From NCBI GenBank assembly GCA_000091205.1, contig AP006497.2: 64,000 nucleotides of DNA; one strand, written 5' to 3'. Source of the stretch: Cyanidioschyzon merolae. Its lineage: Eukaryota. Position 1 is the stretch's first letter. The number at the start of each line of letters is the position of its first letter. This document shows positions 43,455 to 52,516 of the stretch, in pieces. The notes beneath the pieces are model-generated. The model did no database searches and had not been told where the DNA came from. It was given only the letters and a program-made list of their open reading frames with translations. Position numbers and translations under genes: made by a program.

Positions 43455-44130
43455 AAAGTTTAGCTTCTAGGCGGAAGGTCCCGCGATCTGGACAAGTCTG
43501 TTAGGCTGATGCTTCATGCGCTCCCGCAATAGCTGTTGCTCTAGCGAGACCTGAGCAACTCGTCCGCAAACGCAGTTCATTCTGGGACTCAGAGCGGATA
43601 CACTGCGTTTCGATGTCGTCACGGTCGCAGTGGACTTCTTGTATATTGCTTCGCGCTGCAGCAGGCAATAGGTCCGTCTGCGCGATTGGCTCGTTCCCGG
43701 AATGCTCATGAATCCTGATTCCGTAGCAGGTGAATGTAGGCAAAAGGTCCGTCTGCGCGATTGGCTCGTTCCCGGAATGCTCATGAATCCTGATTCCGTA
43801 GCAAGTGAATGCAGGCAAAAGGTCCGTCTGCGCGATTGGCTCGTTCCCGGAATGCTCATGAATCCTGATTCCGTAGCAGGTGAACCACGCCTCGGGCCGG
43901 CACCCTTTGCAGTATGGCAAAAACGTCCTACCTCCGCGATGTATCGTCATCAGCGGTATGAGCGATAAAGCGGACGCTCACGACAGGTACTCGGCGCACG
44001 ATAGAACATACGAAACGACCAGCATATCCGTGAGGAAATATGGGTAAAGGAACTTGGAGCTAGGGTGCAGCACCATGACCAACGCTCTTCTGATTACCAT
44101 TATCCATCCGGCAACCTGTCATCCATGCTC
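43455..44130. repeat. Dispersed ~650 bp non-coding repeat (copy 1) with an internal 75-bp unit triplicated in tandem at 43671..43895
   Basis: It is homologous to 57975..58510. Shared strings include AGGCGGAAGGTCCCGCGA, ACGCAGTT(C/T)ATTCTGGGAC, GTCCGTCTGCGCG...GGCACC(C/T)TT(T/C)G(C/T)AGTATGGCAAAAACGTCCT, GCACACGATAGAAC.TAC.AA.CGACCAGC.TATCCG and ATTACCATTA(T/C)CCATC. Three 75-bp tandem units differ at 2-3 positions. Confidence 0.75.
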
Positions 44131-44968: not shown

Positions 44969-46495
44969 TCAGATTTTCAGAAGGAGTCTGCGCCATGTAA
45001 TAAGGAACTGTGCATAGCTATGAAGGCCATTCGAGGCCGGCTGCTGTTGCTGCTGCTTCTGGGTGCTGTGACGCAGGCGATACCAGAGGCGCAAGGGCGC
45101 AAAGGCCCAGTGTGCAGCACCATGCGACGCAGTGTCCCCATAACTCGACACGAGATAGCCGTCCACGAGGAGCGTGCCTTCAAAAGTGAGCGGCGCGTAC
45201 GCGTTGGTGTCCACGTGCTCGGTAACTCGTACAATGGTGTCGGTGGATCCATCTTCATGGAGCAAGGCCATACCCGGAAACAGGTTGCGGGCTCGCGTGA
45301 ATCGTGGGCGTTCGTGCGCATCTCCCGGTTGGACGTACACTAAATGATCGGGTGTCATGTGCAAAACGCCACCGCTGCTGGTGTGCAGCGCGATATACTG
45401 GAACGGGCCTGCCGCAGTTTGTTTGTCCGCAAACGCGTACGCGGTCGTGAAGCGCTTCGTCCAGCCACCGCGATTGTTCGGGACTAATGTGGCAATACGC
45501 GTCCCGGGTTCGAGTGCGGATAGCGGCACCAGCGTGCCGTCTGCGCGCTCTACGGTGCTCTCAGCCGGAAAGCAGCCGATGAAGCTCTGCCCACCAGCCA
45601 AGGTCGAGGGACAACCAGAGAAGGACTCTAGTGCGACAAACTTTGCGCTTTCGTTGTATATCGGGGGTCCGAGCGTGATGGTGCTCCCCTGCTGCGGCCA
45701 GAAATCAAACGTCGCAGACGTCTCCACAGGTTCATACATGGGAATATTGGTTTCCATCGGGTTTGCCGGGCAATAAAAAGGTGCACTCATCCCCGTCTCT
45801 CGATAAAAATCCAAACACTCCTCACACACAGAATAGCTGAGCTCCATACCAACATTTTCAACGAAACGAACGTCAACGACAGACGCGCACGTTGGCTCCA
45901 TCCCGTTCACGAACCCGCCTTCGGGAACGATTACGACGCTTCCGGAGGGAACGACAAACACATACGCCACCCCGGCTTGCTGGCCCTTGATAAGCCCCAG
46001 CGGTATCGTGAGCGAGTCGGTCAGTGGCGGGTATGGTCCGCCACTGATGGAAGCGAGCTGCGTGCCATCCGTTTCACCAGTCAAGTATGCGGGGAAGAAG
46101 GCACCACCAAACGGATACGCAGCGACATCGGTTGCTCCTCGGTTTAGAACCACAGCCAGGCTCTCATTTTTCGGGTTCAGAAACTGCCAGTATACGATGC
46201 CCTCAGAACGCGAAATCCACGACCAACTCACCTCAACGCCCAGCGGGCTCGAGCAACTCTGTTGACTACGGACTCGCTCCAAGATACGTCCAACGGTTAG
46301 GGTACCCGCCGGTTTGGTACCTTTTGGGTAGTACAAGTGCCGCAACCTCGCCTGTTTCGAACGAGATATGTCGCTGAGCCCTAGCGTTTTCACAGGCAAA
46401 GCGTACGCCACGTAGCAGCATAATCCCACACTGCAAAAGAGCGCTAGCAACAAAATCCAGGAAAAGAGCACGCGACATCGTAGACTGTGGCCCAT
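44969..46495 (-). CDS. Secreted Hog-type protein: signal peptide, a novel N-terminal domain, then a Hedgehog/intein-type Hint domain
   Basis: The signal peptide is MGHSLRCRVLFSWILLLALFCSVGLC. The Hint hallmarks are CFPAESTVERADGTLVPLSALEPGTRIATL ... LHMTPDHLVYV ... FEGTLLVDGYLVSSYGDTASHGAAHWAFAPLR. A poly-Q run lies near the C-terminus. Confidence 0.75.
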   Translation of the reverse strand: MGHSLRCRVLFSWILLLALFCSVGLCCYVAYALPVKTLGLSDISRSKQARLRHLYYPKGTKPAGTLTVGRILERVRSQQSCSSPLGVEVSWSWISRSEGIVYWQFLNPKNESLAVVLNRGATDVAAYPFGGAFFPAYLTGETDGTQLASISGGPYPPLTDSLTIPLGLIKGQQAGVAYVFVVPSGSVVIVPEGGFVNGMEPTCASVVDVRFVENVGMELSYSVCEECLDFYRETGMSAPFYCPANPMETNIPMYEPVETSATFDFWPQQGSTITLGPPIYNESAKFVALESFSGCPSTLAGGQSFIGCFPAESTVERADGTLVPLSALEPGTRIATLVPNNRGGWTKRFTTAYAFADKQTAAGPFQYIALHTSSGGVLHMTPDHLVYVQPGDAHERPRFTRARNLFPGMALLHEDGSTDTIVRVTEHVDTNAYAPLTFEGTLLVDGYLVSSYGDTASHGAAHWAFAPLRLWYRLRHSTQKQQQQQPASNGLHSYAQFLITWRRLLLKI

Positions 46496-46834
46496 GGCGG
46501 GCCACTGCTGCTCCCCGAGTGTGCAGGTCTAGCTCAAACCTCGCCACCTAGAACGTCGGGCATGAATACCCGCAACGGATGCGGCCATGTGCACTCAAGC
46601 ATCGATGCGATGCACCACGTGGCGATGTCCAAGTTCTGGAGTTCCCTGCAAGCGGCCACTCAACGGCCGCATCGCCGGTGCGTCGGAACTCGCAGCGCGT
46701 TCGATGCTTGCACGGCCAGCACCGTGGAGATTAAAATTCGTGGTACCTGCGAGTGCTGCCAGCACGTGGCATCTGGAGGTTCCCTGGTGTGACGTGCAGA
46801 TACAACATTCTCGGAATTGTTCCTGTAGGAAATC

Positions 46835-46968
46835 ATGCGACTCGCCATGAAATCCCTTACGACGCTGGTATTCGTCGTAGAGATCGTTGTTTGCCTCAGT
46901 GTATGGTCTGGGTTAGCCCTTCCGGTTTATCGTAGTGACCGCCCCCAGCTGGTGTTCGCAAAGCCGCC

Positions 46969-47000
<32 letters not shown>

Positions 47001-48427
47001 TCGCCGCCGGGGTGCGTCTCGAACGGGCACCGCTGCACCCTCTCGACCAGAGGGTTGTTCAAGAGGTTTCCGGTGCGCCGCTGGGACAGCCTTCACTGCG
47101 TACAAGCGGCACGAGTTGTACGAGCGGTGCAGGTGTGGAGGTTTCCTGGACATGGTTCAACCAGACCAGCGGTATCGTTGTATGGCAGTTCTACAATCCG
47201 ACTTCGAGTGAACGGGCAGTTGTTCTGAACCGCGGGGCGAAAGGCAACAATAGTATCATTGAATCGTACACCTTCGGCGGCGCCTATACATTCGCGTACC
47301 TCGGGAACGGGCTCGCCACGCTGGCCCCGGGGCCGTATCCGACGCTGGAAGCATCACCGAGCGTGTTGCCGGTCGCCATTATAGATAAGAGCGATCCGGA
47401 TATTGGCTTTCTCTTCACTATTCGTGCGGGTGGCACGGTAAGCGTCGAAGAGGGTGGCTTCGTGAACTTGGAACCGTTCTGTGACAGTGTACCTGACGTC
47501 TCGTTCGCGGAGAACGCCGACGTCAACATCACTTATGCAAAGAGTGTTATGTGTGAAGAATACTATTTTCAGGAAGGTAGTTCGAATGTTACGTGTTCTT
47601 CGAATCCTTTGGTGACGACTTGGCCTATTTATCAAGTGGCAAACGGTTCCGTGACGGGACAGAATTACATTATCATGGACTCTAATACACAGATCGAGTT
47701 TTTGAACGTATCAAACTCACAGGGTGGTTCATCGTCGGGATTCTCCTGCTTCCCGGGCGATGCAACCGTCACACTGTCCGATGGACAAGTCAAGCCCATT
47801 CACCAACTCAAGAAAGGCGATTGGATCTATACGCTTTCGTACGACGCCAAGGATCGCAAGTGGTCCCGTGTTTCGACGAGATTTCTCGGATTCCTCGATC
47901 ACAAACCTGCAGAGCGGACTGAATTCCTTCGGATTACGCTGCACGGGACGGATAGCGTTCTAGAGATTACACCGGATCACTTGTTGCCGGTAGTCGCAGC
48001 CGGTCCGTCCCCTGGTGAGCAACGTGAGCGCTATATGCCCGCTCGGCTGGTTGTGCCTGGCGCATTCCTCTTTCTGGAGACCGGTGAGCTTGCCCACGTA
48101 CGCAGCATGACATGGGTGCAACGGACGGGTGCCTTTGGACCGCTCACCGAGGCGGGAACCCTCCTAGTCGACGGGGTCCTCGTCTCGTGCTATGCGCACA
48201 CAGGGAGTCATGAAGCTGCGCATATGAGTATGTGGCCGTTGCGCGTTGGATCCCGTCTATCTCGCTGGCTGAACCCGGTGCATGCCCGTGTCCCAGGGAG
48301 CGCTTGCGCAAGTACTGGTATGCATCCGTATGCGCGTGTGCTGCTCGCTCTTCAGTACATGCTACGCATGTTCGAGCATCCGAGAAGCAAACAATACCTC
48401 CATAAGCATCAGCATATTTGGCTGTGA
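46835..48427 (+). CDS. Secreted Hog-type protein, paralogous to 44969..46495: signal peptide, a shared N-terminal domain, then a Hint domain
   Basis: A signal peptide and TM-like leader are present. (Q)12 is encoded by (CAG)n at ~46970..46999. The Hint hallmarks are CFPGDATVTLSDGQVKPIHQLKKGDWIYTL ... LEITPDHLLPV ... EAGTLLVDGVLVSCYAHTGSHEAAHMSMWPLRV. Shared N-domain motifs with the partner are SWTWFNQTSGIVVWQFYNP, VVLNRGA, TFGGAY and GPYPTLEAS. Confidence 0.75.
46970..46999 (+). repeat. (CAG)n microsatellite encoding poly-Q inside Hog gene 2
   Basis: cagcagcagcagcagcagcagcagcagcaa. Confidence 0.9.
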
Positions 48428-49229
48428 AATTCTGCGCATAAGCGCTGCGGCGGGTCTGTGAATTCCGATACGAACAACCCCCTATACCTGTGTCAGCTTA
48501 AGAATGAACCATTGGAATGCTCGCCCTGTTCCTAGCGTGCGAATTTCTCCCGACCTTGTTTGTAGATGTACAGCCTCGCCGTTCGAAATGCGACAATGAG
48601 CGATGACGGATTCAAACGTAGTTGTAGGGTTCTCGATCGTCTTGTCAGTGTGGCTCGTTTCTCGCTTTGCCGCTAGAATTCGGTACGTTACCGGAATCTA
48701 GGTGATTCGCGATGCCATGGAACCAGGGCTCGTAAAATAATCGATATCGTTACGAAGTGCATATGTAGAATTTTTCACGCGTCCCTTTTCGGTACCTGCT
48801 ACATGTTAAAATCGCAAATTCTTCAAGTCCTCCATGTTTCTGTTTCGTGGCAATTCGTAGACGCAGCCATTCGCGTCGCTGGATCGAGGAAAAAAAACTG
48901 GACGCCGTCCACTGACGAATTCATCACAGGTTCATGGCTGGCGTTTACTGACTTTGTCACGTGAAAAATTCAAAGCAGCTCGAAGGACAACACTCTTGCT
49001 TGATTGTGGCTATCGAGAAAACGACATTCGACAGCAGCATGATACGTCAGCCAGGACACGCTTCTACTAGAGGCTCCCGTCTATTCTGTTACCACGGAAA
49101 AGGATTGTGGACTCGGGCTTGAGCCAGCGCAGTGATCGCTTCTAGGGAAGCGCCCGTCACCGCCTGGTCCGAACTGAGCATAGACGGATCGAAATTTCTC
49201 GACTTGATCTTGAGGATCGATTTTTTTCT

Positions 49230-49350
49230 GGGATTCGCTTCATCATGGACAAGTTCGCAGTGCACAAATCCTCTATCGAATGGGACGGCGTACGCTTGGA
49301 CATGCATCGGGCAGTGTACTCGCTGTGCGTATCGGCCAGAAGAAGGCCGG
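49230..49350 (+). repeat. Fragment F: a short R-like fragment in inverted orientation
   Basis: The plus-strand peptide QCTNPLSNGTAYAWTCIGQCTRCAYRPEEGRN resembles the R1/R2 minus-strand peptide HSTNPFSNGTAYACFCTIQRTRKGNRPEPARH. Confidence 0.35.
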
Positions 49351-52176
49351 AATTATAGGGTACGGTCTCGGGCATGGAAACGAGCCACGGAAACGACGGG
49401 TGCGCTCTCTGAACCTGTAAAGGGTATGAAGTGAACGCTGAATGAGGCGTTCATGGTCAACAGGACAGCTCTCGGAGGATACGGTACCGTAGACATATGG
49501 GAATACCCGACCGCAGTGAGGTCGCACCGGTGCAAAGCGCACATCGCGACTGTATGCGAAGAAAATGCGACCGGCAAGCGAAGCATATGAACTGCATCTA
49601 CCGCCTATGCACGAAATGCGTCGCTAGCAGCCCGGAGCAGCAATATCGGCATTTGACTGCAGCAATCGACATGCTTCGACTGCTGAAAATGGAACTGGAG
49701 GGAAACGGGAGCAATGCATTCTTGAATCCGGAGATGCTTGTAAGGCAAAAGAAGCAACCACAGAAAAATCCGCAAAATCCAGTTTTCATGACAATCAGAT
49801 GTAATCCGAACGTCCTTATGTACGCCAGAGTTTGGTACTTGGTTCCTGTCCATCTCAGCCTGACATGAACGCCCATAAAGCATCCATAGAGTCGACATGA
49901 GCCAGGAAAAGAGCACATAGCGCGAACGCGCTGGCCTCGGGATGCGTCCGCCCAGGAGACTGCACGCGCTGTGTGGGCGGCCCCAGTTCGAACGCTTTGG
50001 TTCCCGGCTTGAAGCAGGTCGTGCATACGAGTTGCTCCATCTTTGAGGATACCATTCAAGTCACCCGCGGCTGTGATTCTTTATGATACCGTGGATCGCG
50101 TCTTCGGAATACCAGACAGGTTGCGCTGGTCCCATGTCCACAGGAAATATGGCTAGCTGTAGCATCCCTAGCGGGACGGCCGCCAGCATTGGAGCTGCAC
50201 CCAACAAATAGATGTACACGACGTGCATTTAGCTCCTAGTGCCAGGCACGTGAACGCATCCGCCAAGTATTCGCTCAAGGTGCCTTGCAGGTGCACGCGA
50301 TTACGGTGGAAAATCCGCGTACCTAAAAGCAAGCAAATGCCCCCAGAATGCAGCGTCTCTCGGAGCGTCTCTCTGCCGTTCAGGGATGTACCGGTACGCT
50401 GTCGCTCATTTCCTTGAATTTGACGATTCCGATATCGAGGAGAGCGCTCCTGTATTAGACGCTCGCAGCCCTATCCGATTTCGGAGCGAAACGGAACAGG
50501 AAAAGTCGAAGTTCCATCGGTAGGCAGCCACTCATCAAGATCATCCAATTACCCGTGAACGTCGACCTGGTCTCTGCACCAAGCGTACCCATGGTATTGC
50601 ACGACGTGACGAGCCTTGCGATCTATGCGTCCAGGTGGGCGACTCCGGGAACCCGGAACCAGCGTCCTGCGAACACTTCGTAGACGCGACGCCTCGACGG
50701 TGCCCAGTACTGGCGCGTTTTCGGAGGTGCGCAACTGCACAGTTGCATTGCACTGACTCTGGCTTCGCGTCGCATACGCGTTGTACGATTACTGAGCAGC
50801 GACACTCTCTATGCACGCGCTGGTGTTGCTCCCGATGTACGCACAACGTCCAACTTGGAACGGAACCGTCGCCGCAACACACGCCTAGATCCTGGTTCAG
50901 GAGGAGTAACCAATGGTGCTGCTTCGAGTTTTAGGACGGCATGAAAGAGAGCTCCGGCGTATCTTGAATTCAAGATTATCGCCAAGATCAGATTGCCGAG
51001 TTGTACGCCATTGCCCCGAGCCCTGTTTGGGTCTCGCTCACAACGGCCAGCATGTGCGCAAATAGAGTTGTTGCGTTCCCGATATTCGCTTCCGATAAGC
51101 TACGCACGATCTGTTGTTTCACGTCGAGCGTGGGCTGCAAGCACTTGAGCCAATCCCCTGCATGTATTTCGCTTGCCAGCGGCTGCAGGTTGTACGCTGC
51201 TCCGCACTGAGCGGTCGCAGCCTGCACTTGAGCCAATCTCCTGACACCATTCGAGGGAAGCAGCCGCAGCCGCAGCCGCAGCCACAGGCTCTTTGCGTGC
51301 TCGCTCTCCATTGCATTTTCGTACGTACGCTAGACAGACACAGACTCGATCATTGCGGGAAATGGATTTCCGCATGCACTCTGAAGCGCCATAGGCATCA
51401 AAAACATGTTCGACAAAAGCGACGTACGACTGAGAACCTTGTACATGTTCGCTTTCGTGCGACGAGCGTGCACAACACCTCGAGTCGGCGAGCGTCACGA
51501 CGACAGAGACCAGTCGGCAGCGGGTCAGTTGGCGTCAGACACTGCACGTTTGGACGCGTTTCCGAGGAGTTCAATTCTCGATCGAAACTGACTCTGGTAG
51601 GTGCTTTCGAGTTGCCGGCAAATTCACCGCTTCCGGGTAGAGTAAAGCTCGAGAACGCCTTCAGCGCAGTGCCAGTTCTGCCACACGCCACCTTCCCGGC
51701 TCCAGTGAGGTCTAGTTACAAACCGACGCTCCCCGATGCTCGACAGTAGTCTTCGACTCGACCAAGAGGAAACACGGAGAGGCGTCTACGTCACGGGAAT
51801 CAAGCGGCGATCCGGGAAAATGCAGCTCGTCAGGGGCTTTGCCACGCCCTCATCGCGCGAAAACGTCGTATGCTCCAGACGCAAGCGTTGTAACCGCGAG
51901 TGCATGCTGTCTTCGGAAGCGCCGATTGCTCTCCGAACCAAAACACCATCATGAGCAAGGATTCGAGCCCTCGCACCGGTCTCACGATCGCACGCGCTCG
52001 AGTCGAAGCATCGCTCGCCGTCATCGATACAGTTTCTCAAGCCGCAGCCGACAAAACTTCCTGTCCATCACCCGCATGATCCGGCTGCATGCTCGTCACA
52101 GGTTCATTGTCTACTCGTGGAAGAGCGCGCCCCCCGATACAACCGGTACGCGAATGGACAATGCTTCAGAGAGCGC

Positions 52177-52311
52177 ATCCCTCATGACCGTCACACTCGG
52201 GCAGGTACCAAGAAGTGCTGCAGCGTAGAGCTGCTTAGCAACGCATCCCTCATGACCATCACACTCGGAAAGGTACCGAGAAGTGCTGCAACGTCGAGCT
52301 GCTTAGCAACG
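52177..52311. repeat. 67-bp tandem duplication (2 units)
   Basis: GCATCCCTCATGACC(G/A)TCACACTCGG(GC/AA)AGGTACC(A/G)AGAAGTGCTGCA(G/A)CGT(A/C)GAGCTGCTTAGCAAC is repeated head to tail. Confidence 0.8.
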
Positions 52312-52516
52312 AGCGCGTCGACCTAGATGCCACCGTGGCACCCCCAGTGCCGTCCAGTCTCCGTTGGCCAAGTGCAACGGCGGATGCGACGTCGCCACGA
52401 GTGCCCACGGCAGACCCGGTTTCCCAGAAGATCGCCCGAAGCTATCGGAGCAACCATGAGCTCCTCAGCGGGAACCCTCTTGCGGCGAGTGTTCCAACGC
52501 GGCCTTCACTGCGATC

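Follow-up and report, generated by a model that had tools for sequence, protein, structure and literature searches.

Why would a red alga make secreted proteins that end in a Hedgehog-type autoprocessing domain, and what do these proteins release? The question is raised by two neighbouring genes of Cyanidioschyzon merolae, here called A and B, at positions 44,969 to 48,427 of a 64-kb stretch of contig AP006497.2 (assembly GCA_000091205.1; 64,000 nucleotides, hereafter the window). Each protein consists of a hydrophobic leader, a variable linker, a cargo domain and a Hog domain, that is, a Hint domain with an adduct-recognition region. We find that the cargo domain is homologous to PHROG 6678 of the filamentous viruses of archaea (Ligamenvirales). 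The explanation that best accounts for the locus, and that we regard as probable though well short of assured, is that A and B are Hog paralogs restricted to Cyanidiophyceae, and that their virus- and archaea-related cargo was gained horizontally and would be released by autoprocessing on the surface of the haploid cell.

44969..46495, minus strand: gene A, a Hog protein of 508 aa (open reading frame (ORF); exact identity to BAM81541.1 / XP_005537577.1, cluster member P0028)
46835..48427, plus strand: gene B, a Hog protein of 530 aa (ORF; exact identity to BAM81542.1 / XP_005537578.1)

An exact-sequence look-up identifies both as C. merolae 10D proteins annotated 'similar to hedgehog protein', encoded on a 902,900-bp chromosome. 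A sequence-only reading of the window had described them as a divergent pair of paralogs with 340 bp between their start codons. This holds: the ORFs diverge, 339 bp lie between the two ATGs (340 counted start to start), and A and B are 36% identical across 443 aa (BLASTP, E = 6e-73), with similarity in the N-terminal part as well as in the Hint half. Within the window the gene order is DUF2838, YbaB, A, B, a BSD2-like gene and HSF, and the tables of PMC13353863 place CMO184C and CMO185C between CMO183C and CMO186C/HSF CMO187C. From this shared neighbour order, we infer that A is CMO184C and B is CMO185C.

The Hog part of the finding is correct, yet already annotated and published. Nozaki 2007 mapped the 'hedgehog' genes mainly to subtelomeres, and Cho 2023 described combinations of Kelch, Trefoil and Hint there. 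More recently, PMC13353863 (2026, Plant Cell) counted 17 Hog genes in C. merolae, most of them haploid-expressed, and reclassified the 'hedgehog' genes, after Burglin 2008, as non-Hh Hog proteins. In that work A and B fall into orthogroup OG0000012 together with CMN299C, CMN300C, four Cyanidiococcus, four Cyanidium and two Galdieria genes, distinct from OG0000014, which holds the 13 subtelomeric K+Hog/Hog genes. Searching proteins by word index with sequences of the second algal subfamily brought up neither CMN299C nor CMN300C, and their membership is that of the published orthogroup. For the identity of the N-terminal cargo we found no earlier report. Non-animal Hog proteins are widespread; here the cargo is a defined and confidently modelled domain, in a tractable organism and with haploid-specific orthologs.

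The cargo domain and its relatives

What, then, is the cargo? Its extent in the two proteins is as follows.

45722..46267, minus strand: gene A cargo domain, a PHROG-6678-like beta-sandwich, residues ~77-258 (BLASTP to B, family profile, algal alignment)
47117..47644, plus strand: gene B cargo domain, a PHROG-6678-like beta-sandwich, residues ~95-270 (AlphaFold2 (AF2), PHROG, Foldseek, tblastn, column conservation)

The sequence-only reading had taken the N-terminal domain to be about 300 aa long and had not recognised it. All of the motifs that it listed are present (SW(S/T)W, GIV.WQF.NP, VVLNRGA, FGGA(F/Y) and GPYP.L), but the size was overstated: the conserved core spans about 180-200 aa and a variable linker precedes it. 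No curated family covers the domain. The N-terminal part matches nothing in Pfam, NCBIfam or the PDB sequence set and has no close PDB structure, and none of 58 aligned family members matches any Pfam family at E<=0.01. Yet it is part of a large uncharacterised family that extends to some bacteria, to archaea and to the filamentous viruses of archaea.

When full-length B was the query, a word-indexed search returned nothing beyond the two C. merolae clusters and a single protein of 51% identity. HMMER with a three-sequence profile of the cargo domain, run on 1.84 billion representatives of 50%-identity clusters, detected 122 proteins at E<=1e-3, 48 of them at E<=1e-10. The matches in Cyanidium caldarium are KAK4535165, with cargo domain and Hint, and KAK4534070 and CDCA04G1189, with the cargo domain only; those in Galdieria have the cargo domain alone or with other repeats. 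Named prokaryotic matches are a Candidatus Parvarchaeum metagenome-assembled genome (MAG), Thermoplasmatales and Thermoplasmata MAGs, an Acidimicrobiales MAG and a 989-aa Paraburkholderia protein, and a further match comes from an acid-mine-drainage metagenome. The non-algal matches, more than 100 sequences, are mostly stand-alone, leaderless proteins of 200-280 aa. Among identified eukaryotes, the carriers are Cyanidiophyceae only.

The link to viruses was obtained in several ways. The N-terminal domain of B matches PHROG 6678 with E = 8.2e-20 (residues 15-184 of the query on positions 30-197 of the 235-column profile), and archaeal homologs of the cargo domain match it with E values down to 3e-33. 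This family is annotated 'unknown function' and is conserved in Rudiviridae, Lipothrixviridae and AFV1. When 50,697 phage and archaeal-virus records were searched by tblastn with the algal domain, 25 records matched, all of them Ligamenvirales; the best was SMRV1 orf32 (E = 2e-11, 83% coverage), and SIFV0066, AFV9 and AFV1 ORF224 were among the others. With an archaeal homolog as query, the count rose to 41 Ligamenvirales records (Rudiviridae, Lipothrixviridae, AFV1 and AFV2). Finally, hhalign aligned an algae-only profile (13 sequences) with a virus-only profile (four sequences), chosen to avoid mixed profiles, at a probability of 99.7% (E = 7e-26, 158 columns). The annotation of the viral genes goes no further than hypothetical or 'conserved lipothrixviral protein', and we found nothing relevant in the literature on AFV1 ORF224 or SIFV0066, or on a link between Cyanidiophyceae and rudiviruses or lipothrixviruses.

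Structure prediction agrees with the alignments. The AF2 model of the B cargo domain, made from a 58-sequence family alignment, has about 12 strands and two helices at a pLDDT of 92.2 and a pTM of 0.87; three algal sequences alone gave a pLDDT of 40.5. Foldseek against BFVD, in which both structures compared are predictions, retrieved SFV1 A0A346LU67 (E = 9.4e-12, template-modeling (TM) scores 0.66/0.69) and SBRV1 A0A3Q8Q407 (E = 1.2e-10, TM scores 0.71/0.69). The cargo domain thus has the same predicted fold as the viral members.

PHROG 6678, which includes SMRV1 orf32, SIRV4 ORF46, SIFV0066, AFV1 ORF224 and cellular homologs, therefore represents the same domain as the cargo of A and B. The two share an invariant W, N, L-x-R, Y-x-F-G-x-A, Y, F-x-F, E-x-G-F and P. 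They differ in context: the viral and prokaryotic proteins stand alone or carry other C-terminal regions and have neither a leader nor a Hog domain, while the algal proteins are secretory and Hog-fused and possess an additional Cys pair. Across 139 aligned members, in B numbering, R133, Y155, E206 and G208 are strictly invariant and W117, N121, Y145, F147, G148, A150, F192, F194 and P258 nearly so. This cluster of Arg, Tyr and Glu-x-Gly is probably a conserved functional site, perhaps one that binds a ligand. The Cys pair C95/C216 occurs in algae only, and C240/C254 is common to the algae and about one-fifth of the non-algal members. The cargo ties a eukaryotic secreted family to an uncharacterised protein of several archaeal filamentous virus families, so that a function found on either side would inform the other.

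Some family members have architectures of their own. Galdieria P0045 (641 aa) and P0047 (563 aa, GJD09133.1) join the cargo domain through a Thr/Pro-rich linker to two large repeated Cys-containing modules and have no Hog domain; the modules have no Pfam match. Many archaeal members (P0048, P0052-P0055 and others) bear a G-G-(I/L)-x-P-like motif N-terminal to the cargo domain, as well as a short helical stretch at the C-terminus in which two Cys are conserved (C-x(18-22)-C) and which is missing from the algal proteins. The UniRef label 'Pherophorin domain-containing' on Cyanidium P0040 was not reproduced by Pfam, in which that protein has no match at E<=10.

The Hog domain and the leader

Can these proteins cut themselves? 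The regions on which an answer depends are the following.

44972..45574, minus strand: gene A Hog domain, residues 308-508 (PF01079, E = 1.6e-32; alignment to Drosophila Hh-C)
47747..48424, plus strand: gene B Hog domain, residues 305-530 (PF01079, E = 7.8e-40; alignment to Drosophila Hh, PDB 6td6_B)
46397..46495, minus strand: gene A hydrophobic leader, residues 1-33, a probable signal peptide or signal anchor (hydropathy)
46835..46921, plus strand: gene B hydrophobic leader, residues 1-29, a probable signal peptide (hydropathy)

A C-terminal Hint domain had been proposed for both proteins, and Pfam agrees: against a curated cut-off of 29.7 bits, PF01079 scores 113.3 bits in A (E = 1.6e-32, profile positions 11-212 of 213) and 137.2 bits in B (E = 7.8e-40, 9-211 of 213). 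The predicted cleavage sites are G307|C308 in A and S304|C305 in B. Aligned to Drosophila Hh-C, the catalytic set is intact in each, with C308, D357, T381 and H384 in A and C305, D355, T379, H382 and C452 in B. Seven of the seven algal Hog members compared keep the nucleophilic Cys, the Asp equivalent to Drosophila D303 and the Thr-x-x-His. The second conserved Cys (Drosophila C400) is present in B and in five other algal members; in A its position is taken by S451. The hallmarks first listed for these domains stand in part: CF and TPDH are present, and G(T/A)LLVDG is GTLLVDG in both proteins, but A continues with LVSSYG and B with LVSCYA.

B aligns to Drosophila Hh (6td6_B, E = 8e-17) from the Gly-Cys-Phe junction to residue 460 of 471, which takes in the Hint domain and the sterol-recognition region, and conservation among the algal Hog members compared extends to two C-terminal blocks, SH..AH...PLR and G(L/M)H.YA. 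The D303-equivalent Asp is, in established Hedgehog biochemistry, required for sterol transfer and dispensable for thioester formation. Judged by alignment, then, the Hog domains keep every residue needed for Hedgehog-type autoprocessing, the sterol-transfer Asp included.

How do A and B compare with better known Hint proteins? In metazoan Hedgehog, the autoprocessing domain can be aligned to B from the catalytic Cys through the sterol-recognition region, but its HhN/Hedge domain is absent from A and B, and no role in Hedgehog signalling is implied. The sequence-only reading was right on this point: PF01085 (HhN/Hedge) has no match in either protein, and Pfam returns Hint alone, apart from a sub-threshold Vint match. 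A bona fide Hedgehog was therefore rejected. Inteins and bacterial intein-like (BIL) domains have in common with A and B the Hint fold and the N-terminal Cys nucleophile, and B has a weak match to TIGR01445. Because A and B have neither a C-extein nor a C-terminal splicing motif, and end after the adduct-recognition region, cleavage and transfer would be expected rather than splicing. An intein was rejected on the same grounds, the only sign of one being that borderline N-terminal TIGR01445 match.

The closest architectural parallels are the non-Hh Hog proteins of protists, red algae and mosses and the Warthog, Groundhog and Quahog proteins of nematodes. These, too, run from a signal peptide through an N-terminal cargo specific to the lineage to a C-terminal Hog domain, and they conserve Cys, Thr-x-x-His and Asp as A and B do. 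Burglin 2008 (PMC2362128) found that the regions upstream of the red-algal Hog matched nothing known, in a species set that left C. merolae out. Compared with the Hog proteins of that study, the cargo of A and B is a defined beta-sandwich of about 190 aa with archaeal, bacterial and viral homologs, and not a eukaryote-only orphan. The K+Hog genes of Cyanidiales resemble A and B in organism, Hog module, mostly haploid-biased expression and the annotation 'similar to hedgehog protein'. They differ in orthogroup (OG0000014 against OG0000012 for A and B), in their Kelch domain and Thr/Pro/Ala linker, both absent from A and B, and in position: the K+Hog genes are subtelomeric, whereas A and B are chromosome-internal, syntenic across Cyanidiales and not recently duplicated. 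Membership of that group was rejected, as A and B have no Kelch match, the 64-kb window contains no telomere repeat and the orthogroup is separate.

The leader is a feature of the algal branch of the family. An N-terminal hydrophobic leader is found in 15 of 15 algal members and in none of the 118 non-algal members that start with Met. In A, the hydropathy maximum (Kyte-Doolittle, 15-mer) is 2.6 at residues 9-23. According to the supplement of PMC13353863, SignalP 6 calls the Cyanidiococcus ortholog of B positive (Sec/SPI) and that of A negative, which makes the call for the gene A leader uncertain. The proposal of a signal peptide in both proteins is thus borne out as a hydrophobic segment in each, with SignalP 6 on the side of B's ortholog but not of A's. 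The linker of B, which lies between leader and cargo, contains a low-complexity tract.

46969..46998, plus strand: (GCA)10 repeat inside the poly-Q run of B (11 Q, residues ~45-55), in the variable linker (Tandem Repeats Finder)

A counterpart in A, QKQQQQQ, lies near the C-terminus. The tracts are real, but their mirror-image placement, to which attention had been drawn, carries no information: since they are absent from the orthologs (B was compared with its ortholog P0002) and the length in B is variable, the arrangement is best treated as low-complexity noise. The CAG/GCA repeat of B is polymorphic in natural populations: strain 10D and P0001, an environmental variant with 98% identity, are one unit apart.

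The shared spacer and the haploid expression of the orthologs

Does the head-to-head arrangement mean anything? The two genes share one short intergenic region.

46496..46834, no strand: divergent intergenic region, 339 bp (sequence; alignment to the orthologous spacer of the closest relative, L001)

In the closest relative, probably Cyanidiococcus, the orthologs P0038 and P0002 are likewise arranged head to head, with 340 bp between them and with the neighbours that A and B have. Two copies of a composite motif, CACGTGGC...CTGGAG(G)TTCC, lie in the A/B spacer (46616-46645 and 46763-46783), none elsewhere in the 64-kb window, where 0 copies are expected, and one in the relative's orthologous spacer (L001, 7786-7816); a second conserved block lies at about 46717-46743. 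The motif is a candidate cis-element for haploid-specific expression. In Cyanidiococcus the ortholog of A is expressed at 12-15 transcripts per million (TPM) in diploid (2n) and 169-244 in haploid (n) cells, with its protein detected in n only; the ortholog of B is at 0.1-0.4 TPM in 2n and 383-472 in n, with protein about 90-fold higher in n (PMC13353863).

These observations bear on the idea that A and B form a co-regulated functional unit, two subunits of a complex for instance, with one bidirectional promoter serving both. The head-to-head layout and the ~340-bp spacer kept in the Cyanidiococcus-like genome, the conservation there of a motif confined to the spacer and the haploid specificity of both Cyanidiococcus orthologs all speak for it. 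Cyanidium caldarium does not. Its syntenic genes are in tandem, the gene in the B position has no Hint, and g377 is haploid-biased while g378 is mildly diploid-biased, an opposite ploidy bias within the pair (PMC13353863). Moreover, most Hog genes of these algae are haploid-biased wherever they are located, and short intergenic regions are usual in a compact genome. We therefore hold a functional unit to be somewhat unlikely. The earlier claim of a shared promoter and co-regulation fares better in its narrower form: layout, motif and haploid specificity are kept in the closest relative, so that co-regulation through the spacer is plausible in Cyanidioschyzon and Cyanidiococcus. As the Cyanidium caldarium pair is in tandem, includes a gene without Hint and differs in ploidy bias, such co-regulation is not ancestral to the pair.

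At the syntenic Cyanidium caldarium locus (L012, JANCYW010000001.1, 7001-9946), the first of the tandem genes encodes P0040 (312 aa), a cargo domain without Hint. A second Cyanidium pair (L013, JANCYW010000004.1, 2213-11893) is also in tandem, with P0042 (cargo domain only) followed by P0041 (cargo domain and Hog). Its neighbours are an oxysterol-binding-protein gene and a gene of the 3-beta-HSD/epimerase family, a sterol theme that may be a coincidence.

Proposed release and origin of the cargo

By what route would the cargo reach the cell surface? From the known chemistry of Hedgehog-type Hog domains, the steps can be laid out as follows. A and B would enter the endoplasmic reticulum by way of the secretory leader. 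The Hog domain would attack the G307-C308 bond in A or the S304-C305 bond in B, and an N-to-S acyl shift would yield a thioester. This would then react with the 3-beta-hydroxyl of a sterol, which the C-terminal recognition region would hold in position and the conserved Asp would activate; if no sterol is transferred, water would take its place. The beta-sandwich would thereby be freed with a C-terminal sterol ester and displayed at the plasma membrane of haploid cells, which have no wall, or else be released in soluble form. The C. merolae genome encodes a complete route from cycloartenol to cholesterol (PMC8172173).

The main alternative to sterol anchoring is that the Hog domain only cleaves itself, by hydrolysis or with a non-sterol nucleophile, and so frees a soluble secreted protein that has no lipid anchor. 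The adduct of non-metazoan Hog proteins is not established (Burglin 2008, PMC2362128; PMC13353863), the sterol profile of C. merolae is unmeasured, and the Hog-less paralogs P0040 and P0042 of Cyanidium and P0049 and P0051 of Galdieria are secreted forms of the same domain. Against it, the D303-equivalent Asp is kept in all seven algal members compared, and the C-terminal region that aligns with the sterol-recognition region of Hh is conserved as well. On balance we consider simple self-cleavage unlikely.

Where did the domain come from? In neighbor-joining (NJ) trees, the 15 algal sequences formed one clade, with or without the metagenomic protein P0061, in 97 of 100 bootstrap replicates (the algae alone in 54, the algae together with P0061 in 43). 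Support within it is 83% for the Cyanidiales clade, 99% for the grouping of A with P0038 and 100% for that of B with P0002. Since A groups with P0038 and B with P0002, the duplication that gave rise to A and B is older than the split of Cyanidioschyzon and Cyanidiococcus; weakly supported nodes suggest that it may also be older than the divergence of Cyanidium. A and B are accordingly two old paralogs of a Cyanidiophyceae-restricted family. Contamination is excluded by the finished chromosome, the fusion to eukaryotic modules and the synteny in two other genera, the genes lying between YbaB/DUF2838 and HSF in the Cyanidiococcus-like and Cyanidium genomes.

Because Cyanidiophyceae are the only carriers among identified eukaryotes and the non-algal set is diverse, the simplest reading is a single ancient transfer into the Cyanidiophyceae stem. 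An ancestor of this group would have acquired the cargo domain horizontally from a co-habiting prokaryote or from a virus of that prokaryote. A signal peptide and an extra disulfide pair would have been gained afterwards, and some copies would have been fused to a Hog domain. If so, the locus represents an unusual case of horizontal gene transfer in Cyanidiophyceae, with transfer followed by domain fusion and possibly a virus as the vehicle; an eLife survey of horizontal gene transfer in Cyanidiales mentions neither Hint/hedgehog nor viruses. It is very unlikely, in our judgement, that the domain is instead an ancient eukaryotic or red-algal invention that was passed on to prokaryotes and to the viruses of archaea, or a domain of great age that has been lost everywhere else: deep NJ branches are poorly supported, viruses often move genes both ways and thermoacidic habitats are common to algae, archaea and viruses, but the sole eukaryotic matches of known origin are Cyanidiophyceae, which form one clade inside more than 100 more diverse non-algal sequences (those named come from Thermoplasmata, Parvarchaeum, Acidimicrobiales, Paraburkholderia and several Ligamenvirales families), and the secretory leader and extra Cys pair are derived, algae-only features.

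A number of points weigh against the overall explanation that we favour, a horizontally gained cargo released by autoprocessing on the haploid surface. As to origin, deep support in the NJ tree is weak, the leaderless P0061 sometimes falls inside the algal clade, many cargo-domain matches come without taxonomy, and the direction of transfer and the donor are points of doubt, with cellular archaea, bacteria and viruses all conceivable as the source. As to processing, autoprocessing of A and B is deduced from conserved residues, A has Ser (S451) in place of the second conserved Cys (Drosophila C400), and its ortholog is SignalP-negative. Given the unmeasured sterol profile, a different sterol, some other nucleophile or water might serve as the adduct. 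Hog-less family members exist (Cyanidium P0040 and P0042; Galdieria P0045, P0047, P0049 and P0051), so the cargo domain works without lipid anchoring too. As to function and expression, the gene neighbourhoods of five archaeal homologs reveal no conserved partner, and since the viral and archaeal homologs have no assigned function either, residue conservation is all that the ligand-binding idea can draw on. The expression values, moreover, are those of the orthologs and not C. merolae's own.

Only tentatively, and with more doubt than confidence, do we extend the favoured explanation to a biological role. A domain captured from the archaeal/viral pool, secreted, fused to Hog and sterol-anchored on the naked, gamete-like haploid cell might serve in cell-cell recognition, mating or surface protection. 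Were this so, it would mark the first case of an inter-domain origin for a Hog cargo and would offer a genetically tractable route to the function of non-animal Hog proteins.

Two features of the surrounding DNA complete the description of the window. The ~4 kb that lie 3' of gene B (48428-52516) are unusually sparse for a compact genome: no ORF of at least 200 aa is present except 51114-51749, which has no Pfam match. On the other side, between the DUF2838 and YbaB-like genes, three tandem copies of a 75-bp unit, with 96% identity (43661-43884), give rise to repetitive spurious ORFs on both strands.

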